From a virus, in the IMG/VR virus record IMGVR_UViG_3300025597_000012: a stretch of DNA of 64,000 nucleotides; one strand, written 5' to 3'. The notes under the pieces are model-generated. The model was not told the DNA's origin. It saw only the letters and a list, made by a program, of their open reading frames with translations, and did not search any database. This document shows, one piece after another, positions 1 through 48,872 of this stretch. The translations under genes were made by a program, and so were the position numbers. The first letter of the stretch is position 1; each line of letters begins with the position of its first letter.

Positions 1-1979
1 GCTACACCAGTATAAGCATCAGCTAATACAAGTGTATAGTTTGTTGTTTGTGTTGTAAAAATAAGTGAATTAAGTCCTGATGTACCTGCTGTTCCAGATG
101 TACCTGAAACACCAGATGTACCATTTGCACCATTTACTCCACTTGTACCTGAAACACCAGATGTACCTGAAACACCAGATGTACCATTTACACCATTAAT
201 TCCAGAGGTTCCATTTACTCCAGAAGTTCCATCTATACCATTCACACCAGAAGTTCCATTTGCGCCATTTACTCCAGATGTACCATTTACACCATTTACT
301 CCAGATGTTCCTGAAACACCACTAGTTCCAGATACACCACTTGTGCCACTAATACCCGATGTTCCATTAATACCATTAACTCCAGAAGTTCCATTTATAC
401 CATTAACTCCAGATGTACCATCAATTCCAGAAGTTCCATTTATACCATTAACTCCAGATGTACCATCAATTCCAGAAGTTCCATTAACACCATTAATCCC
501 AGATGTGCCGTTAACTCCAGAAGTACCACTCACACCAGAAGCACCAGATGTACCACTAGTTCCATTTATACCAGATGTGCCACTAGTTCCATCAGCAGCA
601 GAACCATTAAGTACAATTCTACCTGCAAATCTATCATCAGGTGAAGAAGGTACTTTTATTGTTACATTATTAGCATCAGTCTGTTCTACTATATCAACAT
701 TTACTTGAACAGGAGTTGAAGTAGTATCCCATAATTCTATTGTATAATTGAAAGTACCAAGTAAGTGATTAAAAGTTATAAAATAATAACCACTTATAGG
801 GCCACTCCAATCTGTAGTTGCATTAAAAATTTGATTAAAGCCAATAGCAGAAAGTCCAGAAGTACCAGAACTACCGAAAAAAGTACCATCAAGTCCTGAA
901 GTTCCTGATACACCAGAAGAACCAGATGTTCCAGAAATTCCAGAAGTTCCTGAAACACCACTAGTTCCAGAAATTCCAGAAGTTCCTGATACTCCAGATG
1001 TACCTGAAACACCAGATGTACCATTGAGACCATTAATACCCGAAGTACCAGATAAACCTGATGTACCATTAATTCCAGAAGTACCATTTATTCCAGAAGT
1101 TCCTGACACACCACTAGTTCCAGATATACCGCTAGTACCATTAATACCATTTACTCCACTTGTACCTGAAATACCAGATGTACCATTTACACCACTTGTA
1201 CCATTTATACCTGACGTTCCGTTTACACCTGACGTTCCATTTATACCTGAAGTACCAGATGTGCCATTTACTCCAGAAGTTCCATTTATACCATTTGCAC
1301 CATTTATTCCAGAAGTTCCATTTACTCCACTTGTACCATTAACACCACTAGTGCCATTAACTCCACTAGTTCCTGAAGTTCCGTTCACACCTGAAGTTCC
1401 GTTCACACCTGAAGTACCAGATGTTCCAGATATACCACTAGTTCCTGATAGTCCACTAGTACCTGATACTCCACTAGTTCCAGATATACCGCTAGTACCA
1501 TTAATACCATTAATACCCGAAGTACCATTTATTCCAGAAGAACCGGAAGTACCATTAATACCTGAAGTTCCTGATATACCAGAACTACCTGAACTACCAC
1601 TAGTTCCAGATATACCGCTGGTACCATTTAATCCAGAAGTTCCTGATATACCAGAACTACCAGATGCACCAGATGAACCTGTAATTCCAGAAGTACCAGA
1701 TGAACCAAAAAATATACCATCAACACCTGAAGTACCAGATGAACCAAAAAATGTACCATCTAAACCAGATGTACCTGATATACCAGAAGAACCAGATGTA
1801 CCAGCTATACCAATACCAGAAGTACCTGAAGTACCTGCACTACCTCTACTACCAGAAGTACCTGCAGTACCAGAAGTACCTGCTGCGTATTTCAGAAGAT
1901 TAACCTCTTTCCAAAGATTATCAATCTGTTTTTCGCAGTTAGTTAAATTAAACTTTATATTTAAATCACCAAGACCCAT
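1..1979 (-). CDS. Collagen-like (Gly-X-Y repeat) fibre protein, 5' part only; the gene runs off the left edge of the window
   Basis: Minus-strand ATG at 1979 overlaps the TAA stop of the giant gene (TAATG). Manual translation gives MGLGDLNIKFNLTNCEKQIDNLWKEVNLLKYAAGTSGTAGTSG... with long GTSG(I/V)NG triplet runs, interrupted near 600-900 by a non-collagenous block (…IGFNQIFNATTDWSGPISGYYFITFNHLLGTFNYTIELWDTT…). No in-frame stop down to position 1, where checked. Confidence 0.7.
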   Translation of the reverse strand, partial: MGLGDLNIKFNLTNCEKQIDNLWKEVNLLKYAAGTSGTAGTSGSRGSAGTSGTSGIGIAGTSGSSGISGTSGLDGTFFGSSGTSGVDGIFFGSSGTSGITGSSGASGSSGISGTSGLNGTSGISGTSGSSGSSGISGTSGINGTSGSSGINGTSGINGINGTSGISGTSGVSGTSGLSGTSGISGTSGTSGVNGTSGVNGTSGTSGVNGTSGVNGTSGVNGTSGINGANGINGTSGVNGTSGTSGINGTSGVNGTSGINGTSGVNGTSGISGTSGVNGINGTSGISGTSGVSGTSGINGTSGINGTSGLSGTSGINGLNGTSGVSGTSGVSGTSGISGTSGVSGTSGISGTSGSSGVSGTSGLDGTFFGSSGTSGLSAIGFNQIFNATTDWSGPISGYYFITFNHLLGTFNYTIELWDTTSTPVQVNVDIVEQTDANNVTIKVPSSPDDRFAGRIVLNGSAADGTSGTSGINGTSGTSGASGVSGTSGVNGTSGINGVNGTSGIDGTSGVNGINGTSGIDGTSGVNGINGTSGVNGINGTSGISGTSGVSGTSGVSGTSGVNGVNGTSGVNGANGTSGVNGIDGTSGVNGTSGINGVNGTSGVSGTSGVSGTSGVNGANGTSGVSGTSGTAGTSGLNSLIFTTQTTNYTLVLADAYTGV

Positions 1980-4900
1980 TAATATTTATTTAATAGTCTA
2001 TAATATTGTAATTGTTCTTCCGGTTGCATCATGTTAACAGCTTGTCTTACAATCGGAATTGCTTTAAAGAGTTTGGCTTTTAATATAGAGTCTCCTTTAT
2101 CAAAGGCTCCTGTTTTTCTTTTATATACTTCTGTAGGATTAGTTACTAATTGAGTAAAGAAATCAGTATATCTTGTAGCTGTAAGAATTACGGCTGAAGG
2201 ATTTTGAAGCACCTGCATAATATCAGTAGCTCCAAAGATACTATACATACCTATATCTTTTCTAAGTCTAAGCATTTGAAGAGTAAGGGTATTTTGTAAC
2301 CAAGATTTATCCTTATCATCTCCTGAAGCATTAGCTAAAGCTATTGTTAAAATACCCATTCCTACAAGTAATGAGAGTTCAAACATAGTTTTATTATAGG
2401 CATACTTTTCATCAGCAGACCAACCTTTTCTATTAAAGAAGTTAGCTGCAGCGTTGAATTTCATTTCTTTAATATCAGAAGCAACCTTACTGAAGAATTT
2501 ACGATAGTATCCCTCCATTTCATCACCTATCTCATAATCAAAGCGTTGTCTTCCGTATCTTGACCTGAAAGCGTTGTACATGAACTTACGGTAAATTAAC
2601 ATAAGTTTACCATAAAAGGTTCTCTGCAGTTGAACTTTATCGAATTTACTATAGTTACCGTTAAGTATTTTATTTACACCATGTAGTCTTTGAGTGAAAA
2701 GTCTTTCATCTTCAGCAGTCCAGATAATATCATCTCTAAGTCTCAAGAAACCTTTTTCATTAATTTTATGAGCATCAAATAGAGATATAGTTTCTCCAGA
2801 CGTAGTTTTAACTTTGGTAGCGTTCATTAAAGAAAGCATACCTACAAGCTGAATCTGGTGTTCTGCTGCGTGGTTAATAATAAAGATAGTATCGGCATTT
2901 GCGTATCTTTGTGTAGCATTACCAACAAACTTTTTACCATATTTATCACGGAACTCACCTTGGATAGCATCGTATTTAATACCTAACTGAGTAATCTTTG
3001 ATTTCTTAAGATTAAAGGCATCCTTCATAAACTCATTAAAGTTACTGAAGTATTGTCCTTGAGCTTTTCTCCAGTCAGCAGGTGTATAATATTTAGCACC
3101 AAGAGATTCTCCAAGTGTCATAATATTACCGATACTTACGTTACCTATACCTGCTGTTACGTTGAAAGCCATGTTATTAAGAGCAGTAAGAAAGGCAAAG
3201 TTTCCACCAAGTTTATTTAAATCTACAGCTCTGCCAAAAATTCTAGCAGTATCTTGTAATTCTTCTTGACCATATACTACATCATCTAACCAGCTAAGTA
3301 GTTGTTTATTAAGACGTTCTGCTGTAGTTTTCTTAGAAGGAAGTTTAAGGAATCTATCAAAAATAGTTTTTCTATCAGATGTAACAGGAATTATTTTTCT
3401 TGCTTCCATCTTAAACTGAGCATTACCTTCAAGAACCATTCTTAAAGTTCTTACATTAGGTTCAACTTCTCTCATCATTTCAACAAGATTAGCTGCACCT
3501 GCAAACTTAAAGATTGTTTCGGGGAGAACTAAGCTTACATTAGAATCATCAATAGATTGTACATAAGGAGTTTTAATTCTCTTGTACATACTACCATCAA
3601 GATTTATGTCATTTTGTGCTGTAGTACTTTCTTCAGCTTTAGGTAAAAAGAAATTCAATACTTTATTACCTACTACTTTTGCTTTATTACCAGCACCTTC
3701 AGCAGTTTTAACATCTTGAATTTGACTGGGTTTGTCAAATACCTGAGGTACTATACCAAATTGAAGTCTTTCTTCTTCTCCATATTTATCATTACCTTCT
3801 TTATAGGTATCATACATTTTTGTAAAGAACTCGTCTTTATTGTAGAGTCTATCAAATTCTGCATTTTTATACTTATCAGCAGGTTTTGAAAGGCTACCAT
3901 TCTGTTCTTCCCAAGCAAAAATTTTATCTACATAATTTTGATATAAAGCTCTTTCTGCTGCTGTAGAATTTTCACTTGGCGCATCAGGCATTTCTCCTAA
4001 TGTTTCTAAGAAGGCAGCTTTATCTTTAGTATAAAGGTCATAGAAGTAAGGTTGGTGCAAAGCCCATTTCTGAGTGTAAGCCCATTTGAATTTACCTTCA
4101 TCATCTTTCTCTTCAGTTTTCTGAAGGATAGTAGCTTTTCTTAAGAAATTTTTCTTGTAGTATTCTACAGTACTTTTAGTTTCATTAGCTAAACCTTTTG
4201 CTTTCAAGAATTTAGCATAATCAATTTTAATTTCTTCACCAAGTTTTGCTTCATATAAATGGTTATCTTCCATTACATCAAATAAGGCTGTTCTTGTAAT
4301 AGCAGAAACAGGGTCATTATTTGAGCCAACAGAACCTAAATGGAACTGTAAGAAGCTTAAATCTTCATCAGCATTATACAGTTTATTTTTAAACTGCTCT
4401 TTTGTAAGTACATAACTAGGGTACTTATCTTTAATTCTTTCATTAACTTCCTCAATGTAAGGGAATAACCATTCAGCAGTAAGGTCTATTGAACGTGCCT
4501 TAATCTTATAGTCAGCTATATTTCTAGCTTCTGCAAGAGTTATTTGCATAGCTTTATATGCTTCAGGGGCAAGGTCTTGTGCTACTCTACCAAATAAACC
4601 ATGTACATCTTCGTACATAGCTAAAAGGTTTCTAACTAAGTCAAGGTCTCTATGAAGTTGTTTTACATCTTTCTGAGTAAGCTTATTTTCTTTATCAGAA
4701 AGCTTACCACTAATTCTCTTGAACTCATCACTAGCATAACGAAGACCATCTATACCTTGATAGATATATTGGTTAATACTTTCAAACTCATCATAGTTTT
4801 TAAGTAAAGACCTAACAGCTATAAGTTCAGAAAGAAGTTCAGGAGAAGGTGTTCTTCTTCTGGCTGTATCATCTAAAACAGCTAGTCTTCTTTTAATTCT

Positions 4901-7900
4901 TTCTATAAGTTTCTGGTCGTCAGTCTTTTCTGTAGCATCTGCTTGGAAAGCTTTAACGGCAGTAATTAAGTCTTTTCTTTCAGTAAAGTCAAAAGGCATA
5001 CCATTACTTGAAGTAAGGTCGGCAAACTCGGCAAGATTCATAGCCGGAAGATATTTTATTTTAGCAACTCCTTGTTCACCTGCTTTTGCACCTTTTACAT
5101 TAGCTTTTAAAGCTCCATAAAAACCACTAAGTACACTTACAAACCAATCAAAGAATTTTCTAGCTAAACTAGCTCCAGATTTATGATATTTATCATAAAG
5201 GAATCTACCAGTTCTGTCAAAATTTCTAGCTCCAAGTTTACCTAAATAGTTAACTAAAGCTTCGTCTTGGATTTCTTCTTTATTTTTACCTTTATATAAA
5301 GGACTCTTTAAAGTTTCAGACATAGCTTCACCAGCTATATCATCGTTCTCAAGTACAAGAGCTTTATACTCCTCCATTAAGCTTGTATATAGAGCATGGT
5401 TATCTACTTTAAGTACAGCCATAAATGGGTGAAGATATTCGTGAAATGGTGTATCTCTTGATACTCTACTTAAGTTAATAACAGCTACACTATTTTCAAA
5501 TTTACCTTTCCAATCTTCATCAACATCTACTACTTGATAAGGTATATTATATTTTTGTTTAAGATGCTCAAGTATAACTTTAAGACCAACATAATCAACT
5601 GTTAAGTTATCTTCATCTTCTGTAGATACAGTAAAAGGTTCATTTTGTTTACCATATTCAGTTTTATGATTTTCTGAATAATCTGTATCATAAGATTTAG
5701 GTATAACTATTTCTTTAAGAACACCTTCATCAAAAGGTTCTTCTGTTTCTTCTTGAATTTCAGGAGCAACTTTAGTAAGTTTATCTGAAGCAACAATTTG
5801 TTCACCATACTTTGTACCATCAGTAATAGTAACAAAAGTAGTTCCTTTTACAGTTCCGAAAGGTGTTTCTTTATCAAGACCTTCATTAACTTCAGTAACG
5901 GTAAGTTCTTTACCATTATACATAACTTTAGAACCTACATCTTCCTTAGTGAATACTTCAGGAATACGTTCTTCCTCAGGTTGAGGTTGTTCTTCAGTCT
6001 GTTGTTCAACTGGTTCAGTTTGTTGAGTTTCAGTTTCTTGTGCAGGAGTTATTTCTTTTTCTTGTGTATTTCCTGCATTTAATTTATCAATGATTGACTG
6101 AATAGCCTCATCTTTATTTAAACCTATTGCATCACCAGCTTCATCATACCAAGCACCATCAAATTCATCAATAGTATTGATAAGAGTACCATTATGTTTT
6201 ATCTCTACAAGACCATCTCCTGTAGTACGAATACTTAATTCTTTACGAGTTATAGCTTTAGTAGGTACTGGAGCAGGTTCTTCGGCTTGTGCTTCTTCAA
6301 CCTTTTTCTCTTCTTCCTGTTCAGTTTTTACCTCTTCTTTAATAACAGTCTCATATTTTTCACCAAGCATAGCAGCATAAATCTTTTTCATGCTGTCATT
6401 AAGGGTTACGTCAATATCAGAACCTACGATACCTTTATAAATATCAGTTAACCATTTCTTAAAATTATCAAAGAGTTTTTGTAATGTAGAAGTAGGAGCT
6501 TCACCATCAGCAAGGTATTTCTCAAAACCTCTAGCAAATTTCTCAGATGTTTCTCTACTCCAATCTTCAGTTCCAGCCCATTCTAATACGTCAGCTCTCT
6601 CAGTATCAGTAAGTTGTCCTTCCCAATAGTGAGCAAGTTCATGTAAAGGAGTTGATACATCAGGATTAGTTAATGAATAAATAATAGCCTGACTATCACC
6701 TAAAAGTCTTATAGCACCTTTTGGGCCTTGATTAAACTGTACATTAGTCCAATTAGCAATTTTAGAAGTATCGTTTCTTTTTAAATCATTATCTGAAAAT
6801 TCAGGACGACCTGAATAAGTAGGTTTAAGTAGTCGTGTAAATCTGTGTTCTGAATTTTTTAATTTTTTAATTTGTTCTTTTATTTCACTTAATTTTGCCT
6901 CTATATTATTTTTAAATTCAAGATATTCAGTTATAGAATCAAAATCGTCTTCAGTTACACTATCTAAATTATTTTTAACTAGGTTATATAGTTGTATTGC
7001 CCCTTTATATTTATCTTCTCTAGTACGAGTATTTGTACCACCTTCTATATTTAAATGATTTTTAAGTTGATTATATATAGAATTAGATAATCTATCTTCT
7101 ATTACTTTTTGTTCATCTGATGTAATATTAGATATTAATTTAGAAATATCTTGAACTTTTCTAAAAGTTTCAGTCTGGTCTACTTTTAATAATTTTTTAT
7201 ATAAACTTGCTTCAGCTAAAATATAATGTACATTATCATCTCTTACAAAAGGAGAATTTATAATTTTATCTTCATAAGAATTATTTTCAATATCTTTATC
7301 TGTAACATTAAATTCACGAAGTATGCTTCTTAATCGAGTTACAAAAGAACCTATTTTTATATTTGTTAAAGTAGCTTCTTTATCTAACCCTCCATGACCG
7401 TTATTAAATCTATTCCAAAGTCCTGAAAGTCCTACTTTTATAGAATCATATTGTTGTGTTATTCCATTAAGTGCTTCAATCTCAGCGTCTGTTAAGTTAA
7501 AGATTTGTTTAAATTGAGATAAAGTTTCTTTATCAATATAGTCTACAATACGACCAAAATTTGATATAAGTTGATTTTTATATTCCTCTTCTGTAACAAA
7601 TTCTGTTCCATCACGAAAAACTTTAAGACCTTTGGAAATATCAGTAATAAAGTTTGTAGGATTTTTTATTTTAGAGATATTTTCTAAAATATTAGCTACA
7701 GGTATTCTTAATTTAGACTCAACTGATTGATTTTGAAATAAAAGATTACCTTCATTTATGAAAGGATTAACAGTTCCGTGAGTTGCCTCATATACGAATT
7801 TAAGGGTATTACCATATCCATTATCAGCAAGCCACTTGTTAATTTTCTTAGCAAGTTCGGGGGTAGCTTTACCATTCTTAGTTTGGAAGGCAAGGTTACC

Positions 7901-10900
7901 AAAGCTTTTAGCTTTTTGAAGCTCAAAGCCTTTTACCACGTTTGCTATCATAGCAGAATTAGAATACTGATAATAAATATCAGGATTCTCTGTAGAGAAT
8001 GTGGCATTTCTACCAGAGGCATCTTTAACTTGGTCTGCTTCGTAAACAGCTAAGTTCTTGATTCCCTGTTCTTTAACATAGTAACCATCATAACCATTAT
8101 CTTTGATAAGCTTTTGGAAAGCTTTATCTTCTAAGACTTGCCAGTTATGTTCTTCAGAAAGGTAGAAATTACCATTCTCATCTTCACCACCTGTTAGTCT
8201 GCTATATATAGTTTTATTGTGTTCTTTTAGGAAAGCAAGGTCTTGTTTATTCTCATAGTCAAAAGGTTTATTTGCTTTTACAAATAAAGATAAAACATTG
8301 TTACCTCTTGTCACCATAGCATAGTCTTCAGAAAAATCATACTCTGGTGATAAGAACAGACCCATTCCTCTACCTTGTGTTTTGTCAAAGATACTCCAAT
8401 TTTCAGGAGTACCATGAAACATAACCATAGGCTCACCATTAACATCAAGAACTTTAGAGTTACCAAACCAGTTCTTAAATGCTTTAGTCTTAGTTAAAAG
8501 CCATGTATCTTCATCAAGTAATGAAGGTCTTCCGTTTGGAGCTTTTCTGAAAGTACCATTCTTTTTAGCAGCTTCTTTGATTTGAGCTTTTTCCTGCTCA
8601 ATAGATGGATTCTGCCAAATAGTATCTTCTGAACCTTGAAGACTTTCAGGAGTTGTTTTTCTGAAAGTTATGGATTTATAGAAGTCTTCTTTGGTCTTAC
8701 CATTTCTTAAAGCCCAAGTAGTAGCTACTCTATCATAGATTTCAGATACAGCTTTAGCCTGAGTTGATTTAAGGCTGAATAATGTCTCCATTACTTTAGC
8801 CATACTTTTCTTATCGGCAGCCACTTGGACTGTTTCAAAAGCTCTTTTTTCAGCTTCAGCAGCTTCAGGAATAAGTCTTACCAGTGCATCAGAAACCTTT
8901 TTACCAAAGATATTCTTACCTGCTTCTGGATTATCTATGTATTGAGATACGACTGCATTAAATACATCCTCATCATTAGAGCCGGCAATACCACTCTTAT
9001 AAGGTTCTTTAATGTCAGTTAAGTTCTCTCTAACTATACTTATAAACTCTTCTTTAGGAGTTTGAATTTTCTTTTCTTCAATTCTAGCTTGCTTAACTGC
9101 TTTAGCTGCAGCGGGTTCTTGCTTAGGTTGAGGTTTTACCTCTTGTTTAGCTTCAGTAGGAGCTGAAGGTTTAACAGCAGCTTTCTGACCTTTTTGTAGA
9201 GGGAATACTCTTAAAGAAAACTGTTTGAATACATCAGGTTGAGCTGCTATTGAAAGAGAGTTATTAAGTTGGTCTTGAGTAACTTCTGCGTCATTCAAGA
9301 TACCTGATTTAAAGTCTTGTTTAGCAAGTGAAAGATTAAGTTTGTCTATACTCTTAGTTTCGTAAGATACTTTTCTAATCTTTTCATCAATAGCTCTAAC
9401 CATTCCGTCAAAGTCTTTGGCTTGCTTTATCTCATTAACTTTAACTCTTTTATGTATAGGATTCTCAGGGTCAACTGTTTTATTGAATACATTAAGATAG
9501 ATATTGCCTTGAGTATCAACAGTTAATTTAAGGTCAGTTCTTCTTTCATCTCTATTTCTAGAGTCTGCAATATAAAGTTTTTCTGTAAGTTCAGAATTAA
9601 TTTTATCTACCTGTGCTTTTGTTAAAGTATTAGGAAGATTTTTAAGTTCATTATATACTTCATTAAGAATCTTTTCATCAGCCGCAGAAGGTCTTGCTAC
9701 AAGATGTCTGAAAGTACTGTCAGGCATTTTCATAACATAAAGATAGCGTCTATCAAAAGATTGAATATTCTTCAGATTATTAGCAACATAAGTTACAATA
9801 TCTGTAATTTCATCTTGAGAAAGTTCTGCTTTATTAAGAATAGTAGGTTTAGTACTTCTTTCGTATTGTTTATTTTCTTTGTTATAAACAACTGGGAATG
9901 AAAGTATTGCACTACCTTTTTGACCTTTGTATGTAAGATTTTTAAGTAATGTAGAAGAAGATTCTGATTTTGAATAATTTATACCGCCATAAGAAGTTAC
10001 AATATCAAATAAAGCCTTAAGCTCCTGATTAGTAAATTCAGTTTTACCTGATTTAAATTGAGAATAGAAATGCTCACTAAGTGCTTTATAATCAGTCATT
10101 TGCTGAATAAAGTCAGAATAAGTTGAAGGTTCATTACCTGTAATTCTTTCATATTCTTCAGGAGCAATCTCAATTAACGGAGTATATTTTTCACCTCTTT
10201 TAAAATAAAGTCTATCAGCGTCACTAAGAAAACCAATAGTCTCACCTTCAAATTTTAATTCAATTTGAGTATGTGAACCTGTGTAGTAAACACCCGGAAT
10301 ATTTTTAAAACCTTGATATGCACCATGAGGAAGCCCTTTAGTGCTTTCTGCTACAGTAGCAGTAAGACCATCATAAATTTGTTGAGGTGTTTTACTGAAT
10401 AAAACTTTTCTAAGATTGTCATTATTTTTTTGACCATCTTGATAGTTTACAGAGTTAATCTTGTTAAATAAAACTGAAGGGTTAGCAACCATTTGGATGC
10501 TATTAGTCTTCACACCTTTTCTTTTCTTATCAGCTTCTTTTACACCTTCTTGAATTTCTGCAACATCCTCAGAATCAAATGTTTCGTGAGTAGGAGTATT
10601 GTCTATAAAAGTAACTGGGCCAGCAGAAGTTTGAACTTCTTTAGAAGTATTTTCTTCTAATGTAGCCAGTTCTGCATCATATTTAGCATTAATTTTTTTT
10701 GAATAAGCGTTTAAACTGGATTCCTCCCCTGTTCTTTCTCCTGTTTTAGAGTATTTACCAAAAGAAGTTTGAGAATACGCAACTTTTAAGTAATCTTCTG
10801 TTGTTTGTTCTTTACTGATTTCAAAAGGAGAGTTATCATTAACATTACCATATTTATTTTTTTCAATACCTTGGTAAGCCATTCTTTTTCCATCAGGATA

Positions 10901-13858
10901 CGTTCTTATTTGAACATAAGTAATATCTCCATCATCATTAGTAAATGTAAATTCTTCTACTTTAGACGCATCTTTATCTTTATATTCATTTAATTCTTCC
11001 TGTCTTCTTTTTTCTATATCAGCTTTCTTAGCTTCTATATCAGTAGCTTTATTTTTATTTTCAGCTCTTTGAGCTTGTGCTTTCTTAGTTACTTCTGCTT
11101 TTACTTTAGAAGAAACTTTACCTTTTACTTCTTTACCGTTTTTATCAACGGCTGTAACTTCCCCATTAGGTTTAACTATATAAGTCTTACCTTCATTTTT
11201 TACAAGTACGTCTTTAGTTTCTTTCTTAGTTTCAGCAGGTTTAGCCTCAGTAGCTTTAGTAGCTGCTGCAGCTTTAGGAGCTGGTTCATCTACAACGTCT
11301 TCTACATCAGCACCATTAACATCACCGGGTTTAACTTCAGTATCTAAGAAAGGTGATTTATCAAAGTTATCTTCAGCTCTTTGATATTCAGCCATTACAT
11401 CAGCAAAGAATTTATTATATCCGTTCTTATTTGTAAGTTGCTGATAATGATAAATAGCACCATCTGTAGCACTTATAAGTTTAAATCCATCTTGTGCTTT
11501 GTTTAAAATATCATAAGCATCAATAGGATTAATTATTTTTTCATTACTAAAAGTTTTGTTATTAGCATAATAATTTAATAACTCTGTAGCAGTTTTTGTA
11601 TAGTTTCCTTTATAATCATCAGCTAAAGCATCTTTAAGTTCTTCAACTTTTTTATTTAAAAAGTCTCTTTCTTTTGTTTGCTTTTTATATAAATCGGAAT
11701 CCTTATCTTCAACATCTTTTGTTAATTCATCAATCTCTTTAACTCTTTTTTCAAATCTATTTATAGTATCTTGTACACCTTTATCATTAGTTAAATTAAT
11801 TACTTCATCAACATTAGCACCAGTGGATTGAGCTATCTCTGTAGATATTTTAGAAAGTCTTCTTTTATTATCATTAATTTCTGATAAGTTAAGACCTAAC
11901 TGTGTTTTATATTCATCAAATACAAAATAATTATTAGTTCCTTTTTTATAAGGATTAGGGAAAACTTTTTCTACTTTATCAATATTATCTTTAATATCGT
12001 GAGCTTTTTTGATAATATTATCAACAAAAGCATCTGTAGTTTTTTTGTTTTCTTCTGAGAAATTTATACCAAACATATTTTGGAACTCTTCAGGCTTAAG
12101 TTCTTTAAGCATATTAAGTTGTTCCATTCTTAAATCAAAGCGATTAGCTCTGACTCCACTTTCAACAAAGTTAAATAATTGTTGAAATTTAAGATTTTTA
12201 TGTTCAAAAATATCACCTTTAGCTAAAGCTTCATCCATAGAAGACTTAATAGATTGAGCTACTACAGCTTCATCATAAGTATTTCTAAATAAACCAGAAA
12301 GTCTTTGACTATTAAGTAAAGAAACGGCAGAATTAATTATTTGATTTTTTCCACCATCAATACCTTTTCTACGCTCAAGAGCACCTCTACCAACATGAAT
12401 AACAGCACCGCTAAGAATACCTAAGAATACATTCTCAAGACCTTCTCTTGTAGTTAGTACTTCTTTTAATCCTGTTGCTAAAGATTGGGTAAAATTATCA
12501 ACAGTATCAATATCCTTATTAGAGAATTTACGCTTATAATAATCTTCGGCAGTTCTTTGAATTACAAATTGAGAACCTTCTTCAAATCCTTCAGTAAGAC
12601 TTGTAGTTATAGGTCTAGCTATTTTACCTGCTGATTTAAATAAATCAAATTTTGTACTATTCTTTAATGTATTTTCAAATACATCCATAGATGCTTTAGA
12701 TAATGCAATATCCGCATCACTCATTACTTCAGATTGTACTGCTTTTCTAGCTGCATTTGTAGGACTAAATAGTGAACCAAAAATTTGTGAATTTGTAAAA
12801 GTAAGAAGAGCTACGTTAGCAAGCATACCAGCATTACCACCACCTCTTGCATATTCCTTAATCTGTTCTAAATCATAACCAGATGGGTCACGATGATATG
12901 TATTTCTATAATCTTCTGTTAAATTTTTTTCAATATTACGATATGTTTGATTTGCCTCAAATGTACCTTCAGCAATAGCAGAAGTACCTATAGCCAGACC
13001 ATATCTGAATTTATCAACAATATTTTTTGTTTTATTAGCTGCATTTATAGTAGCAAGAAGTTCATCGGCCTTATCTAAAGATTCAATAACAGCAGTTGAA
13101 ACTCTTTTTTCAGCAGTAAAGTATTTTCCTATTTTACCAAAAGCACTCATTATTTGAGAGCTTACTAATGGAACATCACCAACACCTCCAGTTAAAACTC
13201 CAACTACAGCATCTTCAGCAATAGCACCACCAATAGCACCTGCAGTGAAGCCAAGGTTATTTAATAAAGTACTCCAGTTATTAGCAGAACCATTAGTAAA
13301 AGGAATCCAACTAGCAATAGGATGTAACTGATTAGCAGTAGATTGATATGTAGGATGACTTATTTCTAAATTTTCCATCATATCTGCAATAGAATTTGCT
13401 AATTTTCCATTATATGTTTTATCTATATCTCCTGATGATAAAGCATCTAAAGTTTGGGGAACAGCAACAATAGCTTGTGCAAAAGAACCTGTAGTATTAC
13501 CTAAAAATTTTAAAATATTATTTCCCCATGTAGTCCAAGCACTTTGTCTATCACCATATTGAGCTTCTTGATTTGTATTATATGGGTCAAATCCATAAAT
13601 AGGTGACTGATATCTTAGAGTTTGTTCAAGAGGTGTTCTAACAGGCTGATTTATTTCTAAAGAAGATGACCAAGGTGCAGATTCAGTTCTTACTTTATCA
13701 AAGATACTTGATAAGATTTCTTTAGGAGAAGGAGTAACCTGAGCACCCGGAACATTAGGCATAGGCTGAGTATGTAACTCAGGACTAACTAAGTTATTCA
13801 TTCCTGTATTCAGGAAATCCAAGTTTCTGTTATATGTACCATTTGGAACGTCAGGCAT
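1979..13858 (-). CDS. Giant virion/tail protein (3959 aa), probable ejected or tail-associated protein; zincin-type HExxH motif (PLHELAHYWEG, ~6626-6640), low-complexity K/A/E-rich linker, possible ADP-ribosyltransferase-like HGT motif (~8408-8419)
   Basis: Uninterrupted 11.9 kb ORF at the distal end of the structural block. HELAH confirmed by reverse translation of 6626-6640. Crude screen for the crAss-type RNAP DxDGD motif negative. Confidence 0.85.
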   Translation of the reverse strand: MPDVPNGTYNRNLDFLNTGMNNLVSPELHTQPMPNVPGAQVTPSPKEILSSIFDKVRTESAPWSSSLEINQPVRTPLEQTLRYQSPIYGFDPYNTNQEAQYGDRQSAWTTWGNNILKFLGNTTGSFAQAIVAVPQTLDALSSGDIDKTYNGKLANSIADMMENLEISHPTYQSTANQLHPIASWIPFTNGSANNWSTLLNNLGFTAGAIGGAIAEDAVVGVLTGGVGDVPLVSSQIMSAFGKIGKYFTAEKRVSTAVIESLDKADELLATINAANKTKNIVDKFRYGLAIGTSAIAEGTFEANQTYRNIEKNLTEDYRNTYHRDPSGYDLEQIKEYARGGGNAGMLANVALLTFTNSQIFGSLFSPTNAARKAVQSEVMSDADIALSKASMDVFENTLKNSTKFDLFKSAGKIARPITTSLTEGFEEGSQFVIQRTAEDYYKRKFSNKDIDTVDNFTQSLATGLKEVLTTREGLENVFLGILSGAVIHVGRGALERRKGIDGGKNQIINSAVSLLNSQRLSGLFRNTYDEAVVAQSIKSSMDEALAKGDIFEHKNLKFQQLFNFVESGVRANRFDLRMEQLNMLKELKPEEFQNMFGINFSEENKKTTDAFVDNIIKKAHDIKDNIDKVEKVFPNPYKKGTNNYFVFDEYKTQLGLNLSEINDNKRRLSKISTEIAQSTGANVDEVINLTNDKGVQDTINRFEKRVKEIDELTKDVEDKDSDLYKKQTKERDFLNKKVEELKDALADDYKGNYTKTATELLNYYANNKTFSNEKIINPIDAYDILNKAQDGFKLISATDGAIYHYQQLTNKNGYNKFFADVMAEYQRAEDNFDKSPFLDTEVKPGDVNGADVEDVVDEPAPKAAAATKATEAKPAETKKETKDVLVKNEGKTYIVKPNGEVTAVDKNGKEVKGKVSSKVKAEVTKKAQAQRAENKNKATDIEAKKADIEKRRQEELNEYKDKDASKVEEFTFTNDDGDITYVQIRTYPDGKRMAYQGIEKNKYGNVNDNSPFEISKEQTTEDYLKVAYSQTSFGKYSKTGERTGEESSLNAYSKKINAKYDAELATLEENTSKEVQTSAGPVTFIDNTPTHETFDSEDVAEIQEGVKEADKKRKGVKTNSIQMVANPSVLFNKINSVNYQDGQKNNDNLRKVLFSKTPQQIYDGLTATVAESTKGLPHGAYQGFKNIPGVYYTGSHTQIELKFEGETIGFLSDADRLYFKRGEKYTPLIEIAPEEYERITGNEPSTYSDFIQQMTDYKALSEHFYSQFKSGKTEFTNQELKALFDIVTSYGGINYSKSESSSTLLKNLTYKGQKGSAILSFPVVYNKENKQYERSTKPTILNKAELSQDEITDIVTYVANNLKNIQSFDRRYLYVMKMPDSTFRHLVARPSAADEKILNEVYNELKNLPNTLTKAQVDKINSELTEKLYIADSRNRDERRTDLKLTVDTQGNIYLNVFNKTVDPENPIHKRVKVNEIKQAKDFDGMVRAIDEKIRKVSYETKSIDKLNLSLAKQDFKSGILNDAEVTQDQLNNSLSIAAQPDVFKQFSLRVFPLQKGQKAAVKPSAPTEAKQEVKPQPKQEPAAAKAVKQARIEEKKIQTPKEEFISIVRENLTDIKEPYKSGIAGSNDEDVFNAVVSQYIDNPEAGKNIFGKKVSDALVRLIPEAAEAEKRAFETVQVAADKKSMAKVMETLFSLKSTQAKAVSEIYDRVATTWALRNGKTKEDFYKSITFRKTTPESLQGSEDTIWQNPSIEQEKAQIKEAAKKNGTFRKAPNGRPSLLDEDTWLLTKTKAFKNWFGNSKVLDVNGEPMVMFHGTPENWSIFDKTQGRGMGLFLSPEYDFSEDYAMVTRGNNVLSLFVKANKPFDYENKQDLAFLKEHNKTIYSRLTGGEDENGNFYLSEEHNWQVLEDKAFQKLIKDNGYDGYYVKEQGIKNLAVYEADQVKDASGRNATFSTENPDIYYQYSNSAMIANVVKGFELQKAKSFGNLAFQTKNGKATPELAKKINKWLADNGYGNTLKFVYEATHGTVNPFINEGNLLFQNQSVESKLRIPVANILENISKIKNPTNFITDISKGLKVFRDGTEFVTEEEYKNQLISNFGRIVDYIDKETLSQFKQIFNLTDAEIEALNGITQQYDSIKVGLSGLWNRFNNGHGGLDKEATLTNIKIGSFVTRLRSILREFNVTDKDIENNSYEDKIINSPFVRDDNVHYILAEASLYKKLLKVDQTETFRKVQDISKLISNITSDEQKVIEDRLSNSIYNQLKNHLNIEGGTNTRTREDKYKGAIQLYNLVKNNLDSVTEDDFDSITEYLEFKNNIEAKLSEIKEQIKKLKNSEHRFTRLLKPTYSGRPEFSDNDLKRNDTSKIANWTNVQFNQGPKGAIRLLGDSQAIIYSLTNPDVSTPLHELAHYWEGQLTDTERADVLEWAGTEDWSRETSEKFARGFEKYLADGEAPTSTLQKLFDNFKKWLTDIYKGIVGSDIDVTLNDSMKKIYAAMLGEKYETVIKEEVKTEQEEEKKVEEAQAEEPAPVPTKAITRKELSIRTTGDGLVEIKHNGTLINTIDEFDGAWYDEAGDAIGLNKDEAIQSIIDKLNAGNTQEKEITPAQETETQQTEPVEQQTEEQPQPEEERIPEVFTKEDVGSKVMYNGKELTVTEVNEGLDKETPFGTVKGTTFVTITDGTKYGEQIVASDKLTKVAPEIQEETEEPFDEGVLKEIVIPKSYDTDYSENHKTEYGKQNEPFTVSTEDEDNLTVDYVGLKVILEHLKQKYNIPYQVVDVDEDWKGKFENSVAVINLSRVSRDTPFHEYLHPFMAVLKVDNHALYTSLMEEYKALVLENDDIAGEAMSETLKSPLYKGKNKEEIQDEALVNYLGKLGARNFDRTGRFLYDKYHKSGASLARKFFDWFVSVLSGFYGALKANVKGAKAGEQGVAKIKYLPAMNLAEFADLTSSNGMPFDFTERKDLITAVKAFQADATEKTDDQKLIERIKRRLAVLDDTARRRTPSPELLSELIAVRSLLKNYDEFESINQYIYQGIDGLRYASDEFKRISGKLSDKENKLTQKDVKQLHRDLDLVRNLLAMYEDVHGLFGRVAQDLAPEAYKAMQITLAEARNIADYKIKARSIDLTAEWLFPYIEEVNERIKDKYPSYVLTKEQFKNKLYNADEDLSFLQFHLGSVGSNNDPVSAITRTALFDVMEDNHLYEAKLGEEIKIDYAKFLKAKGLANETKSTVEYYKKNFLRKATILQKTEEKDDEGKFKWAYTQKWALHQPYFYDLYTKDKAAFLETLGEMPDAPSENSTAAERALYQNYVDKIFAWEEQNGSLSKPADKYKNAEFDRLYNKDEFFTKMYDTYKEGNDKYGEEERLQFGIVPQVFDKPSQIQDVKTAEGAGNKAKVVGNKVLNFFLPKAEESTTAQNDINLDGSMYKRIKTPYVQSIDDSNVSLVLPETIFKFAGAANLVEMMREVEPNVRTLRMVLEGNAQFKMEARKIIPVTSDRKTIFDRFLKLPSKKTTAERLNKQLLSWLDDVVYGQEELQDTARIFGRAVDLNKLGGNFAFLTALNNMAFNVTAGIGNVSIGNIMTLGESLGAKYYTPADWRKAQGQYFSNFNEFMKDAFNLKKSKITQLGIKYDAIQGEFRDKYGKKFVGNATQRYANADTIFIINHAAEHQIQLVGMLSLMNATKVKTTSGETISLFDAHKINEKGFLRLRDDIIWTAEDERLFTQRLHGVNKILNGNYSKFDKVQLQRTFYGKLMLIYRKFMYNAFRSRYGRQRFDYEIGDEMEGYYRKFFSKVASDIKEMKFNAAANFFNRKGWSADEKYAYNKTMFELSLLVGMGILTIALANASGDDKDKSWLQNTLTLQMLRLRKDIGMYSIFGATDIMQVLQNPSAVILTATRYTDFFTQLVTNPTEVYKRKTGAFDKGDSILKAKLFKAIPIVRQAVNMMQPEEQLQYYRLLNKY

Positions 13859-16563: not shown

Positions 16564-18651
16564 TTATTTTTTAGGTTTAGCAGAAGCAGCAGCCGTAGGT
16601 ATTCCAAGTGGTCTTCTGAAAATATACTGTCTTCCGTTGAATTGTCCTTGTTGATTAAAGTTCGGGAATAGCTGCATAAGAAGATTTCCTTCTCTATTAA
16701 GTTTTGCATTTTGTGCAAGACGTTGATAAAGCTCATCCCAAGATGTTCTCTTTTGCTTGCTTTGTGCTTCTAAGCTACCAAGTTGCTTACGTTCAAACAA
16801 TTCTCTTGCTTGTTGGTCAGCTTGAGATTGTTGTCCTCTTGCTGTAGCATTATACATTGTTTCTTTATTCTTAATATCTTTATTTACATTCTCATCATTA
16901 CCAAGTATTTGATTATCAAGGGAATACTTGCTTGTAAAGATATTGGCTAGATTAGCATATCCTTGCCCGTTTGCAGGTAAAAGCTTTAATGCAGCATTAA
17001 AAGCAGCCTGACCTGATTGTAACGCAGGTGTAGGATTTTGTCTATTTAATCTTATTTGCGGAACCTCAATAGGATTATACTTTACAGGTATTCTTTGTGA
17101 AGCATCTAATAATCCTTGAAGCGGGCCAGCTACATCATACCAATTAAGAGGTTGATTAAATCTACTATCAGAACTACCATCACCATTTGCAGTATTAGCC
17201 GCAGTTGGTGTACCTTGACCTAAAGAACCACTAGCACCATCAGGATTTCCTGAAGTATTAGCAGCAGATACCCCATTTTCATTTCCTGTAGGTAATGTAG
17301 GAATTGGTGAATCTGGCATATACCAGTTATAATTTGGATTATTATCCGGTGTTAATTGAGGGCCAACACCAAGTCCATTACCCTGATTACCATGAGAGTA
17401 AACAGTAACATTACCTAATGTTTTTGACTTTGCTAAATTTCCAGTAGGTTCATCTGAACCAGCAGGAATATGATACCATTTACCATTAATATATTGCCAG
17501 TCATTAGGATTAAAATTAGGGTTTCTTCTATTAGGTCTCCAGTTATGACCTACACCAACTTGTGCTTTTGATACTTTATATTTACCACCGCATTTAGCTT
17601 TAGGTTGCTCTATACCAGCCATTTGTTTTATAAACTCTTGATGGTCAAATAGTTTATCAAAAAGTTCACCTTCTGTTGGTACAGTTTGGAGATGTTGTAA
17701 ATTCATATCCATTGAATTTTGTGCAAACTTATTGTTAGGAGTTTGTGTAAGTGATTTTACATTACTCTTTAACTTAGCTTGTAATTTATTTATATGTTTA
17801 TTATTTTTTTCAAGAGCTAATTCTAGAGCTTTTGAGTGTGAAACTTCTTTACCCGGATTATGACCAGTAAGAAGTTCTGCCATCATAGGACTAAGTTTAA
17901 GATGTTGAGAATCAGTATCTTTTCTCATAGTGCTTGTATTTTCAAGTACTCTTGATACATCTTGTAAAAGCTCTCCTCCTTGTTCATGTGTATTACCATT
18001 GTCTGAAACCTTCTTTATTTGCCCTGTAGCTTCCTGAAATACTTCACCCTTCTCTGCCTCTACATTAGGATTATCATCCTTAGAAACGCCTTTAACGGCC
18101 TCTAGACCATACTCAGCTTTCTTTGGCATTTTAGAATCAATCATTTTTCTTGCAGCTTCTGGACTTTTACCTCTTGCAACAAGTCTAAGAAAGGCAGCCT
18201 GTCTTGATGTAATTTTATGACCATATACAGTTCCTTGATTAAGTAAAGCGGATGCCTCACCTTTATCTAAAGCTCCACCGTTTTTAGCATACATAGGTAA
18301 ATCACCAATACCATCTTCTTGTCCACTTTCATAACTAGGTGATTGTAAAGCTTTTAGGTATTGTTCTTGCTCTTGTTTTCTATTTTTAATTTCTTGTATA
18401 TCATTTGCTGTCTTAGTTATAATTCTAGCAGCAGGATTGATTATATTAAACGGATTATTATTTCCAATATTTCCTATACCATTAGCAAGAGAAATAATGT
18501 CATCAATACCGCCACTGCCAGCAAGACTTAAACTATTCAAATCATAACGCCCTGTATTACGTACATCTATTCTTTTATCGGAAATAGAAGGAATAGGTAT
18601 ATCTTTATATAAACCAACTTGAGCTTTTTTTACTGTATATTTTTTAGCCAT
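16564..18651 (-). CDS. Structural protein, 695 aa, Gly/Asn/Pro-rich (possible fibre or baseplate component)
   Basis: Long ORF. N-terminal MAKKYTVKKAQVG motif is repeated internally (GGKYKVSKAQVG) and resembles the N-terminus of the adjacent 424-aa protein. Confidence 0.7.
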   Translation of the reverse strand: MAKKYTVKKAQVGLYKDIPIPSISDKRIDVRNTGRYDLNSLSLAGSGGIDDIISLANGIGNIGNNNPFNIINPAARIITKTANDIQEIKNRKQEQEQYLKALQSPSYESGQEDGIGDLPMYAKNGGALDKGEASALLNQGTVYGHKITSRQAAFLRLVARGKSPEAARKMIDSKMPKKAEYGLEAVKGVSKDDNPNVEAEKGEVFQEATGQIKKVSDNGNTHEQGGELLQDVSRVLENTSTMRKDTDSQHLKLSPMMAELLTGHNPGKEVSHSKALELALEKNNKHINKLQAKLKSNVKSLTQTPNNKFAQNSMDMNLQHLQTVPTEGELFDKLFDHQEFIKQMAGIEQPKAKCGGKYKVSKAQVGVGHNWRPNRRNPNFNPNDWQYINGKWYHIPAGSDEPTGNLAKSKTLGNVTVYSHGNQGNGLGVGPQLTPDNNPNYNWYMPDSPIPTLPTGNENGVSAANTSGNPDGASGSLGQGTPTAANTANGDGSSDSRFNQPLNWYDVAGPLQGLLDASQRIPVKYNPIEVPQIRLNRQNPTPALQSGQAAFNAALKLLPANGQGYANLANIFTSKYSLDNQILGNDENVNKDIKNKETMYNATARGQQSQADQQARELFERKQLGSLEAQSKQKRTSWDELYQRLAQNAKLNREGNLLMQLFPNFNQQGQFNGRQYIFRRPLGIPTAAASAKPKK

Positions 18652-19925
18652 TACGGATTCTTTTTAAATCGTGGAGAATAGAAGTTTTGTTTTTGTGTGT
18701 ATTGTATATCACCTGAACTAGGGTCAATATAATAAGGCAAATTTAATTTTTCATCCCAAAATAACTCATTTACTTGTTGAGGAACATAAGGAGAAACTAA
18801 AGACTTAGGAATAGGACTATAATCAGGAGATAATTTATTTCCATTTATATCTACATAATCAGGTACTCTATTACCAACGGTAGCATTTTCTCCCATTATT
18901 AAATTTCTTTCTACTGCAAATTTTTTAGCCTGCTTATTAGCTTCTGCTATTTGTTCTTTTGTATATCCACCAACTTGCATCTTATGTTCCTTTACAACTC
19001 CATACATAGCTACAGTATGATTAGGGCCATGTAATACAGCGGTCTTTCCTCTTTGGTCTGTTACCTTTATAGGTCTTCCAGAATCTAATCCGCGTATAAG
19101 ATTATACTGCGGTGGTAAATCAAGCGTCATACTTTGTAAAGAACTACCGTTCAATCCATTAGCTAGTTCTGTAGGTGTGCTTGCTACTCCACCCATTTGT
19201 CTTTTAGCGGGTTCTATATGCCAGTGAGGGCCAACTCCTTTTACATTTCTTTCATCAATTATTTCATAACCTTGACTTTGCATATATGCTCTTCCTTCAG
19301 GAGAAGCAAAAAAAGCATCTGTCTTAGGCTCTGTTCTAATATCGGCAGCTCTACCAGTTAAGTGAAACGAGTTCTTTGCAGAACCAGTTATCTTACTATT
19401 TTCTTGAGGTGTTCTAAGTCCACTTGTTACTGTAAAATTTCCTATTTTTGATTTAATCCCTGATAATACTCCAGTTAATTGATTAGATAATCCTTGTGAG
19501 CTAACTCCTTGTTTAAAAGATATTCCTTCTGCGCTTGGTGTTCTAGACACATTTGTATTAGGAGTTGAAGCAGGAGTTCCACTAACTTCCTCATCACTAA
19601 AAGTTATAGGCATATTATCATCATCCTGAAAAATAAAATTTAGGAAGGGGTCATTAAAATCCTTACCTATAGTTTGATTTCTTTGTAAACTTTCAAGTTG
19701 GCTAGCAAGGTCATTATATTTACCTAAAAGCTCCTGATAATTATCATCTCCAATATCTGAAGACGTTGTTTCGGCAGCCTCTTCGGTATTATTATCTTCA
19801 CTCTCTTGTTCGTCCTGTTGTGGTTGCTGTTGATTAGCTTGTAAATAACTAGCTACCTGATTAAAAAAATCAGTACTATATAAATCATTTTGACCACCAA
19901 CTTGATATTTAGATTTCTTTCTCAT
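18651..19925 (-). CDS. Virion-associated peptidoglycan hydrolase candidate; peptidase M15 (LAS/VanY-like) signature SFHLTGRAADI
   Basis: SxHxxGxAxD zinc-peptidase motif sitting inside the tail gene block. Confidence 0.6.
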   Translation of the reverse strand: MRKKSKYQVGGQNDLYSTDFFNQVASYLQANQQQPQQDEQESEDNNTEEAAETTSSDIGDDNYQELLGKYNDLASQLESLQRNQTIGKDFNDPFLNFIFQDDDNMPITFSDEEVSGTPASTPNTNVSRTPSAEGISFKQGVSSQGLSNQLTGVLSGIKSKIGNFTVTSGLRTPQENSKITGSAKNSFHLTGRAADIRTEPKTDAFFASPEGRAYMQSQGYEIIDERNVKGVGPHWHIEPAKRQMGGVASTPTELANGLNGSSLQSMTLDLPPQYNLIRGLDSGRPIKVTDQRGKTAVLHGPNHTVAMYGVVKEHKMQVGGYTKEQIAEANKQAKKFAVERNLIMGENATVGNRVPDYVDINGNKLSPDYSPIPKSLVSPYVPQQVNELFWDEKLNLPYYIDPSSGDIQYTQKQNFYSPRFKKNP

Positions 19926-48481: not shown

Positions 48482-48485
48482 TAAG

Positions 48486-48558
48486 TACACTCTAAAAGAT
48501 TCGAACTTTTATTTCTTGGTTCGTAGCCAAGTGTCCTCATCCATTGGACGAAGAGTGC
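48486..48558 (-). tRNA. tRNA-Arg (ACG)
   Basis: Manual cloverleaf: GCACTCT / GTCC..GGAC / CTTGG-CTACGAA-CCAAG / AAAAG-TTCGAAT-CTTTT. Confidence 0.8.
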
Positions 48559-48563
48559 AAAAG

Positions 48564-48635
48564 TGTGAATGACCAGACTCGAACTGGTACTTAGTAGCTC
48601 CACAAACTACCGCTCTACCATTAAGCTACATCCAC
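48564..48635 (-). tRNA. tRNA-His (GTG)
   Basis: Anticodon loop TTGTGGA; extra 5' G; T-arm ACCAG-TTCGAGT-CTGGT. Confidence 0.8.
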
Positions 48636-48643
48636 CATATGAG

Positions 48644-48714
48644 ATGCCTCTAAAGGACTCGAACCTGTAACTCTTGACCCAAAATCAAGCGTGTTGCCAT
48701 TACACTAAGAGGCA
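48644..48714 (-). tRNA. tRNA-Gln (TTG)
   Basis: Anticodon arm CTTGA-TTTTGGG-TCAAG; acceptor TGCCTCT/AGAGGCA. Confidence 0.8.
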
Positions 48715-48719
48715 AAAAG

Positions 48720-48791
48720 CGTGGAAGGTGGATTCCGAGACCACAACACCTTGCTCTTCAGGCAAGTGCTCTACCTTTGAGCTACATCCAC
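48720..48791 (-). tRNA. tRNA-Phe (GAA)
   Basis: Anticodon loop CTGAAGA; D-arm GCTC-AAAGGTA-GAGC. Confidence 0.75.
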
Positions 48792-48798
48792 ATAATTG

Positions 48799-48872
48799 AG
48801 CCTGAGAAGGGAATCGAACCCTCAACCGCTAGTTTACAAAACTAGTGCTCTACCGATTGAGCCACTGCAGGC
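48799..48872 (-). tRNA. tRNA-Thr (TGT)
   Basis: Anticodon arm CTAGT-TTTGTAA-ACTAG; acceptor stem has a bulge or mismatch. Confidence 0.65.

Follow-up and report, generated by a model that had tools for sequence, protein, structure and literature searches.

The gene analysed here lies in a 64,000-nucleotide (nt) stretch of viral DNA, IMG/VR record IMGVR_UViG_3300025597_000012, referred to below, at its full length, as the window. On the minus strand, an open reading frame (ORF) that runs uninterrupted from ATG to TAA encodes a product of 3959 amino acids (aa) (Table 1); this ORF and all the motif strings quoted in a first-pass annotation of the DNA were located in the translated sequence.

Giant gene and its setting in a structural module

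The minus strand of the window constitutes a crass-like structural module, in which the genes for the large terminase (TerL), portal, major capsid protein (MCP) and a collagen-like tail fibre lie upstream of the giant gene on the same strand, and the giant gene comes last, after an 876-aa ORF. Since the block includes a gene for a Crassvirus muzzle protein (PF25731), it can be recognised as a crass-like tail/cargo module. Three ORFs separate the muzzle gene from the giant gene, two of which (695 and 876 aa) have no family match. The start of the giant gene overlaps the stop of the 876-aa gene in a TAATG sequence, and its own stop overlaps the start (nt 1979) of a 781-aa gene in the same manner; by these overlaps at both ends, the giant gene belongs to a late operon with translational coupling. 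Among isolated phages, Leptolyngbya phage Lbo-JY46 (125 kb) comes closest, and its structural module runs collinear with that of the window.

An ORF of 11.9 kb in DNA of ~32% G+C cannot be accidental. Nor is it an accident of assembly, because four 3959-aa sequences from JGI, ENA and NCBI sources fall into one 90%-identity cluster, and ENA contig ERZ724020 NODE_75 (118,377 bp) is 100% identical to the window across 23.9 kb. An assembly or sequencing artefact falsely joining two adjacent genes might be proposed on the grounds that the two halves are encoded as separate genes in Lbo-JY46 and in the metagenomic contig L003; set against the cluster members from three sources and the identical ENA contig, this explanation is extremely improbable. 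A megablast comparison of 25 kb of the window with a phage collection gave no match, i.e., no nucleotide-level relative there, and internal repeats were not found when the giant protein was searched against itself with BLAST.

Table 1. Features of the giant gene and of the neighbouring cargo block (window coordinates; residue numbers refer to the 3959-aa protein)
Feature	Position	Strand	Remarks
Giant gene	1979..13858	-	cysteine-free polyprotein, 3959 aa; TAATG overlaps with upstream 876-aa and downstream 781-aa genes
N-terminal module, aa 1-~1570	9149..13858	-	separate ~1550-aa gene in relatives
Gly/Ala-rich, moderately hydrophobic segment, aa 204-226	13181..13249	-	FTAGAIGGAIAEDAVVGVL
K/A/E/P low-complexity linker, aa 859-882	11213..11284	-	PAPKAAAATKATEAKPAETKKETK; inside variable K/E-rich stretch, ~aa 850-1010
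Fusion junction, aa ~1580-1680	8819..9121	-	after K/A/P/Q-rich linker; joins gp47-like and gp49/gp65-like modules
Effector-slot N-flank, aa 1682-1741	8636..8815	-	conserved; 45% identity to Lbo-JY46 aa 48-107
ART-PolyVal ADP-ribosyltransferase domain, aa 1805-1954	7997..8446	-	H1815 (FHGT), F1835 (GLFLS), Y1846, D1924 (GYDGYYV)
Effector-slot C-flank, aa 1958-2028	7775..7987	-	conserved; holds ATHGT; aligns with Lbo-JY46 aa 229-295
HELAH module, aa 2373-2500	6359..6742	-	~130 aa; HExxH invariant in homologues
Small beta-barrel, aa ~2644-2690	5789..5929	-	in E/Q/T/P-rich acidic linker between HExxH domains; range inferred from model strands
Region spanning FHEYLH	5144..5611	-	second HExxH domain
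C-terminal ~1000-aa module	1982..5044	-	homologous to phi14:2 gp65, crAss001 gp49 and the Lbo-JY46 2748-aa protein
Conserved hydrophobic transmembrane-like helix, aa 3823-3846	2321..2392	-	maximum Kyte-Doolittle value 1.89
Candidate cargo genes, 876, 695 and 424 aa	13858..19925	-	co-directional, upstream of giant gene, cysteine-poor
Crassvirus muzzle protein, 1652 aa	19925..24883	-	PF25731 crAss_MUZ match; 22 cysteines

Modules of the giant protein

Mapping by local tblastn with the proteins of relatives, and by tblastn against the phage collection, which returned the same relatives, revealed that two proteins with separate genes in relatives are fused in the giant protein. Its N-terminal module has counterparts in Lbo-JY46 (XAI97382, 1552 aa) and in contig L003 (1544 aa), with 32-36% identity, and aa 330-736 are homologous to the crAss001 cargo protein gp47 (local tblastn, 6e-13). 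The remainder, aa ~1680-3959, corresponds to the 2748-aa protein of Lbo-JY46 (XAI97381), and in L003 to two pieces of 405 aa and 1998 aa (the latter P0001). The C-terminal module is 31% identical to the Lbo-JY46 protein over 1057 aa, and the last ~600-1000 aa match crAss001 gp49 (4e-27) and phi14:2 gp65 (5e-19; both by local tblastn). Between the two pieces in L003 (9106-10023; Logan SRR29078105) we observed a 305-aa ORF with a Tn7 TnsA-like N-terminal endonuclease domain, which suggests that the homologue was split by a mobile endonuclease.

Low-complexity stretches rich in K/E/A/P/Q/T lie between the modules, at ~aa 850-1010, 1500-1600 and 2500-2720; the first of them, which does not align to relatives, holds the K/A/E-rich linker that had been pointed out before and was found again here. 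Hydrophobic segments near the N-terminus also occur, without being aligned to that of the giant protein, in crAss001 gp47 and in the 1552-aa protein of Lbo-JY46. Moreover, a hydrophobic helix located 129-160 aa from the C-terminus recurs in P0001, Lbo-JY46, phi14:2 gp65 and crAss001 gp49.

The sole significant Pfam match in the giant protein is the ADP-ribosyltransferase (ART) family ART-PolyVal (PF18760), whose full profile (positions 1-140 of 140) aligned to the domain listed in Table 1 with 69 bits (E 9e-19) in the whole protein and 76 bits (E 6e-21) in a sub-window, the cutoff being 31.2. Members of this family, which belongs to the Tox-ART-HYD2 clade, have a His in strand 1, a Tyr in strand 2 and an Asp in strand 5 (Iyer et al., PMC5512222). 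In the giant protein, VMFHGTPENWSIF occupies aa 1812-1824 (VMFHGT from aa 1812) and GLFLSPEYDF aa 1833-1842; in an alignment with 21 homologues, H1815 (strand 1, HGT) and D1924 (strand 5) are near-invariant. The strand-2 aromatic residue is F1835, at a position where Phe is commoner and Tyr is present in some homologues (alignment A3), and Y1846 follows 11 residues on. An AlphaFold2 (AF2) model of the domain reached predicted local distance difference test (pLDDT) values of 80-96, and a Foldseek search of the PDB with it placed AcrIF11, an anti-CRISPR ART, first (6kyf, E 2e-5, probability 1.0), with tankyrases (E 5e-3 to 5e-2), MbcT (6fkg, E 0.03), PARP10 and diphtheria toxin among the further matches. 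Activity has been shown for AcrIF11Pae1, which has H-F-H-D in place of H-Y-Y-E as its key residues (PMC12421852); thus, the H-F-Y-D set found here has an experimentally active precedent.

Taken together, the profile match, the model and the fold matches bear out the ART-like module proposed in the first-pass annotation, with several corrections. The annotation had expected a downstream glutamate completing an H-Y-E triad; the acidic residue is Asp (D1924), which makes the domain H-Y-D in type. The motif had been placed ~640 aa upstream of the HELAH motif, and the actual spacing is ~592 aa. The suggested resemblance to Tpt1 did not hold, and a reading of the domain as Tpt1/KptA was rejected, since neither name appears among the Pfam matches or among the listed top 50 PDB fold matches.

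A second ATHGT had also been noted, supposedly 170 aa after the first HGT and related to the ART. It lies at aa 2025-2029, ~210 aa after the first, and is part of a conserved flank that is common to a relative bearing an unrelated enzyme: between equivalent flanks, Lbo-JY46 (L001 6940-15186) has a GNAT acetyltransferase domain (PF00583, aa 122-210, E 3.6e-8). We therefore rejected a second ART at this position, as Pfam detects no further stretch there, the model by AF2 is helical with low confidence, and the segment is homologous to the flank of the GNAT-bearing orthologue. Since equal flanks bracket an ART here and a GNAT in Lbo-JY46, the region between and including them (window 7775-8815, minus strand) can be regarded as a swappable effector slot. 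A Pfam scan of 17 family members detected ART-PolyVal in 5/17, LPD23 in 4/17, and GNAT and DUF6782 in 1/17 each; with a local hidden Markov model (HMM), the ART was found in 9/25 proteins that have both HExxH domains (see below) and in 32/146 representatives with the first HExxH domain, usually upstream of the HExxH. The exchange of ART for GNAT together with this patchy presence indicates that the ART is an exchangeable accessory cassette, as described for polyvalent proteins.

The HELAH motif (aa 2406-2410, nt 6629-6643), contained in PLHELAHYWEGQ at aa 2404-2415, had been taken as the sign of a zincin metalloprotease domain. A second HExxH, FHEYLH (context FHEYLHPF; aa 2805-2810, nt 5429-5446, minus strand), was overlooked at that time. 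From composition (40 His, 324 Glu), 0.033 HExxH motifs are expected in the protein, and at least two occurred in 0.04% of 20,000 shuffled sequences. Both motifs are invariant in the respective alignments (HELAH at 2406-2410 in A4, 21 sequences; HEYLH at 2806-2810 in A5, 19 sequences), the AF2 model puts each of them on a helix, and both are accompanied by downstream Glu residues, giving H2406/H2410/E2439 and H2806/H2810/E2866 as candidate metal sites. The second domain is related to the first (hhalign 87.7%) and is conserved in 25 representatives. In crAss001 gp47, the C-terminal TYHEAFHVVF resembles the second HExxH in its sequence context.

Searching 1.84 billion representatives with HMMER, we found the HELAH module in 5397 proteins at E <= 1e-3 and in 1420 at E <= 1e-10. 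The best matches are mostly phage proteins of 1200-4450 aa, nearly all of them cysteine-free; the best 146 have a median length of 2356 aa, and identity in the module is often 50-64%. Neither HExxH domain could be assigned directly to Pfam, either in ten sub-windows or through scans of member proteins, and no Pfam model, zincin or polyvalent, covers them; hence, the HELAH module is a candidate for a new curated family. Seven of the 25 representative proteins with both HExxH domains (drawn from the best 150 matches) are 3175-4451 aa long, and in six of these seven the first HExxH domain starts only after residue ~1590, as would suit an N-terminal module of similar size, the N-terminal part having been aligned for P0030 only.

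As to the nature of these domains, curated zincin families gave no direct significant match to either, and sequence-profile searches of PDB sequences returned nothing significant. Links to zincins are transitive or weak: homologue P0027 matches PF18894 PhageMetallopep above threshold (E 1.4e-6), and other homologues give weak matches to Peptidase_M78/IrrE (0.001), ATLF, SprT-like and M1 families. In the AF2 model (pLDDT 65-86), one helix precedes three strands, after which come the HExxH helix and additional helices, an element order like that of zincins; it is the second domain for which this zincin-like topology is seen. Foldseek on the two-domain model placed PprI/IrrE at the top (E 0.06), followed by the minigluzincins selecase and jannalysin (E 0.3-0.4), all weak matches, and the MtfA structure was also among the weak fold matches. 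Hence, both HExxH domains are very probably zincin-like metallopeptidase domains for which proteolysis is predicted; the evidence for their zincin nature is consistent but weak and supports it only moderately. That assignment agrees with what has been published on gp65 and on polyvalent MPTases. Fold matches of the small beta-barrel between the two domains were weak (N-domains of eIF5A/EF-P and Tudor-like barrels), and the residues aligned in them were not shown in the output.

The giant protein contains no cysteine. In the four consecutive ORFs of the cargo block (3959, 876, 695 and 424 aa) there is one cysteine in 5954 residues, i.e., one in the 1995 aa of the three smaller products, while the 19 other ORFs of the window have a mean cysteine content of 1.46%.

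Proposed function as ejected cargo and competing explanations

The notion of polyvalent phage proteins, with ART and metallopeptidase (MPTase) as hub domains, was introduced by Iyer, Burroughs, Anand, de Souza and Aravind (2017; PMC5512222). We propose that the giant protein is such a polyvalent cargo protein of a crAss-like phage, which would be packaged, ejected, cut by its zincin-like domains and used to modify host proteins by its ART, and we assign this reading a probability of roughly 0.7. An ART, two HExxH domains and cargo modules within 3959 aa agree with the multi-enzyme giant protein foreseen in the first-pass annotation. That the protein is in the virion and is ejected is inferred from homologues verified in virions by mass spectrometry (MS), from the position of the gene in a structural operon, and from cysteine depletion. 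The homologues concerned, phi14:2 gp65 and crAss001 gp47 and gp49, are MS-detected virion proteins described as 'RNAP-associated' cargo, i.e., associated with RNA polymerase (RNAP) (database annotation; PMC10172136); orthologues of gp65 carry a zincin-like domain, and huge fused polyproteins occur in some crAss-like phages (bioRxiv 10.1101/2020.03.07.982082). The gene order of the block, with the muzzle first and then an M15 peptidase and other cargo-like genes, agrees with such an identity.

In this scenario, the protein would travel in the capsid and leave it before the DNA, extruded through the tail in an unfolded state, and the gp49/gp65-like module, with its conserved hydrophobic helix, would associate with the envelope or membrane as part of an ejectosome. 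One or both zincin-like domains could then cut the polyprotein at flexible linkers, and the released ART would draw on host NAD+ as infection begins and mono-ADP-ribosylate proteins of the host, possibly the transcription machinery (as does T4 Alt) or a defence protein (as does AcrIF11). We interpret the lack of cysteine in terms of cargo that would have to cross the tail and the oxidising periplasm in an unfolded state before folding again; it fits the partial-unfolding ejection model proposed for the crAss001 cargo (PMC10172136). Near-total absence of cysteine marks these cargo proteins and may serve as a simple screen for ejected proteins.

Several points weigh against this reading. For the protein of this phage, packaging, ejection, processing and ART activity are predictions, as are cleavage sites in its linkers and the host targets of the ART. 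The strand-2 Tyr of the H-Y-D definition is replaced by Phe, a replacement frequent in the family and present in the active AcrIF11. Finally, no catalytic RNAP was found in the window or in the full genome of Lbo-JY46, and hence the homologous modules do not by themselves justify assigning an 'RNAP-associated' role here.

The last point deserves closer consideration. A crude screen had earlier failed to find the crAss-type DxDGD motif of RNAP, and our outcome for window ORFs of at least 300 aa was the same, with neither DFDxD nor DxDGD present. Neither a homologue of the crass catalytic RNAP (phi14:2 gp66, crAss001 gp50; E < 0.03) nor a DFDxD turned up in the window, the 8 kb next to it, L003 or the whole genome of Lbo-JY46, ~46 kb of the phage's own contig lying outside the search, which was made at BLAST level (tblastn) and by motif, so that a very divergent two-barrel RNAP could be missed. 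The largest genes of Lbo-JY46 encode 2748-, 1654- and 1552-aa orthologues of window proteins; a 'DWDGD' in a 674-aa ORF of that phage was dropped as an RNAP motif, as it has no counterpart in the window. Either the RNAP is too divergent to detect, or it is encoded in the unsearched ~46 kb, or it is lacking in this branch. In the last case, a branch resembling Lbo-JY46 would do without a virion RNAP (vRNAP), and the gp47-like and gp49/gp65-like scaffold would be an RNAP-independent, membrane-anchoring vehicle with a swappable slot and enzymes released by zincins. We consider this unlikely, though, if true, host take-over would rely on injected protein-modifying enzymes and not on an injected polymerase, and the label 'RNAP-associated' would be a misnomer for a branch truly devoid of the polymerase.

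Other explanations assign different roles to the parts of the protein. It could be mainly architectural, a part of the ejectosome or conduit or an internal scaffold, with the ART and HExxH domains as decayed, non-catalytic passengers. Enzymatic signatures are missing from over 80% of the protein, for which helices or low complexity are predicted, the C-terminal module holds a conserved transmembrane-like helix, and most relatives lack the ART (present in 5/17), all of which would suit such a role; we nevertheless regard it as quite improbable. Likewise, the ART domain might be an NADase, an NAD+ phosphorylase or a modifier of nucleic acids (DarT-like or Tpt1/KptA-like) and not a protein mono-ADP-ribosyltransferase, given that ART-fold enzymes are chemically versatile (PMC9503650) and that the NAD+ phosphorylase MbcT is among the fold matches. 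However, the best folds are those of protein-modifying ARTs (AcrIF11, tankyrases, PARP10, diphtheria toxin), the Pfam matches and the listed PDB matches include neither Tpt1/KptA nor DarT, and ART-PolyVal was grouped with protein-modifying clades by Iyer et al. (PMC5512222), which leaves this alternative with little likelihood.

A stronger competitor concerns the substrate of the zincin-like domains, which may act on the host (peptidoglycan/envelope or cytoplasmic defence proteins) and not on the polyprotein itself. Drobysheva et al. suggested that the gp65 zincin may activate RNAP and/or digest peptidoglycan, roles both in cis and after injection were discussed by Iyer et al. (PMC5512222), and IrrE/PprI and M78, which come nearest among the weak matches, cleave other proteins as site-specific regulators. 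On the other hand, the same block already encodes a cell-wall peptidase (424 aa, Peptidase_M15_3), and processing in cis would suit the alternation of two zincin copies with long flexible linkers. We consider action on host substrates possible, though somewhat less probable than processing in cis, and continue to favour a packaged polyvalent protein that is cut by its own zincin-like domains.

Relation to known systems and neighbouring features

The giant protein belongs to the already described polyvalent class and is not a new kind of system. Known polyvalent proteins (e.g., N4-like vRNAP-MPTase-ART fusions, such as the vRNAP of Roseovarius Plymouth podovirus 1) are likewise giant products of late genes in which one or more zincin-like MPTases and linkers accompany an ART of the PF18760/HYD2 type, and their predicted route, packaging in the head and injection with the DNA, is alike. 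The giant gene, too, lies among late virion/morphogenesis genes (TerL, portal, MCP, tail fibre and muzzle upstream), and the LPDs and variable architectures of the polyvalent domain network are found in its family, relatives carrying LPD23 and swapping effectors. In contrast, its backbone is crass-like gp47 plus gp49/gp65 and not an N4-type RNAP, MuF or ArdC-N, no RNAP module is detectable, and its HExxH domains have no Pfam match.

With phi14:2 gp65, crAss001 gp47/gp49 and the crAssphage ctcc615 protein it shares homology, a position after the muzzle gene, a C-terminal transmembrane-like helix and paucity of cysteine. An HExxH domain is also present in gp65, gp47 and ctcc615, and the ctcc615 protein (AXF52200, 'RNAP associated protein fused to zincin protease') has an ART-PolyVal as well. 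However, the giant protein is 2.8-2.9 times longer than gp65/gp49, fuses gp47-like and gp49-like parts, and has two HExxH domains plus an ART, and its gene, unlike crass cargo loci, has no neighbouring catalytic vRNAP (gp66/gp50, DFDxD) that could be found. In Lbo-JY46, two genes (XAI97382, 1552 aa, and XAI97381, 2748 aa) take the place of the one here, and the slot holds a GNAT and not an ART.

AcrIF11, the best structural match of the ART model, is like it an ART of a mobile element, with H-F-H-D against H-F-Y-D here, and the domain studied here is predicted to act on host proteins. It differs in being a small stand-alone cytoplasmic protein made after entry; its sequence identity to the ART is only 13%, and targeting of CRISPR-Cas is without support here. 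T4 Alt, an ART that is stored in the capsid, injected with the DNA and modifies the alpha subunit of host RNAP (PMC5512222), provides the functional model, although it belongs to the R-S-E (Alt/VIP2) clade, in contrast to the H-Y-D type here, and is a single-domain myovirus protein.

The novelty of the giant protein is modest and lies in the fusion of gp47 and gp49, the two zincin-like copies combined with an ART, the slot that takes ART or GNAT, the cysteine-free signature, and a widespread HExxH module lacking a curated model. It clearly illustrates a class known from prediction, that of polyvalent effectors packaged in the head, in a crass-like lineage whose early infection biology is poorly known. 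Precise experimental targets follow from it, namely H1815 and D1924 of the ART (aa 1805-1954), both HExxH sites and, as candidates for cleavage, the linkers. Of interest beyond this phage are the presence of ART or GNAT at a single conserved slot among related phages, and the occurrence of a 130-aa HExxH module without a curated family model in thousands of mostly large phage proteins.

Around the giant gene, the following was observed. Directly after the muzzle gene, a cysteine-free 424-aa protein with a Peptidase_M15_3 domain is encoded (18651-19925, minus strand), which is likely an ejected cell-wall peptidase. The 781-aa gene downstream of the giant gene runs off the window and has many internal collagen-like repeats, which resemble the tail-fibre region near 30.2-30.5 kb. 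At its 3' end, the giant gene shares sequence with a plus-strand ORF (1024-2037, 337 aa, TTG start); we did not accept this ORF as a real gene, as it is probably a shadow of the 781-aa minus-strand gene.

Farther away, 21 tRNA genes lie in several clusters at 48485-56868 (minus strand), upstream of the terminase gene, and Lbo-JY46 has a similar tRNA cluster in a collinear position. Between 58000 and 64000, G+C content climbs from ~32% to 44% and GC skew turns positive, and ORFs switch to the plus strand beyond ~61 kb; the shift at 58000-64000 may mark a module boundary or an end of the phage genome. Extended along the window, the coordinates would run past the limits of the 118-kb ENA contig, so that the window may derive from a different or permuted record. 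Lbo-JY46 also encodes the NAD+ salvage and phosphoribosyl pyrophosphate (PRPP) enzymes PncB and PrsA (L007 16548-20757), which could be related to NAD+-centred conflicts.

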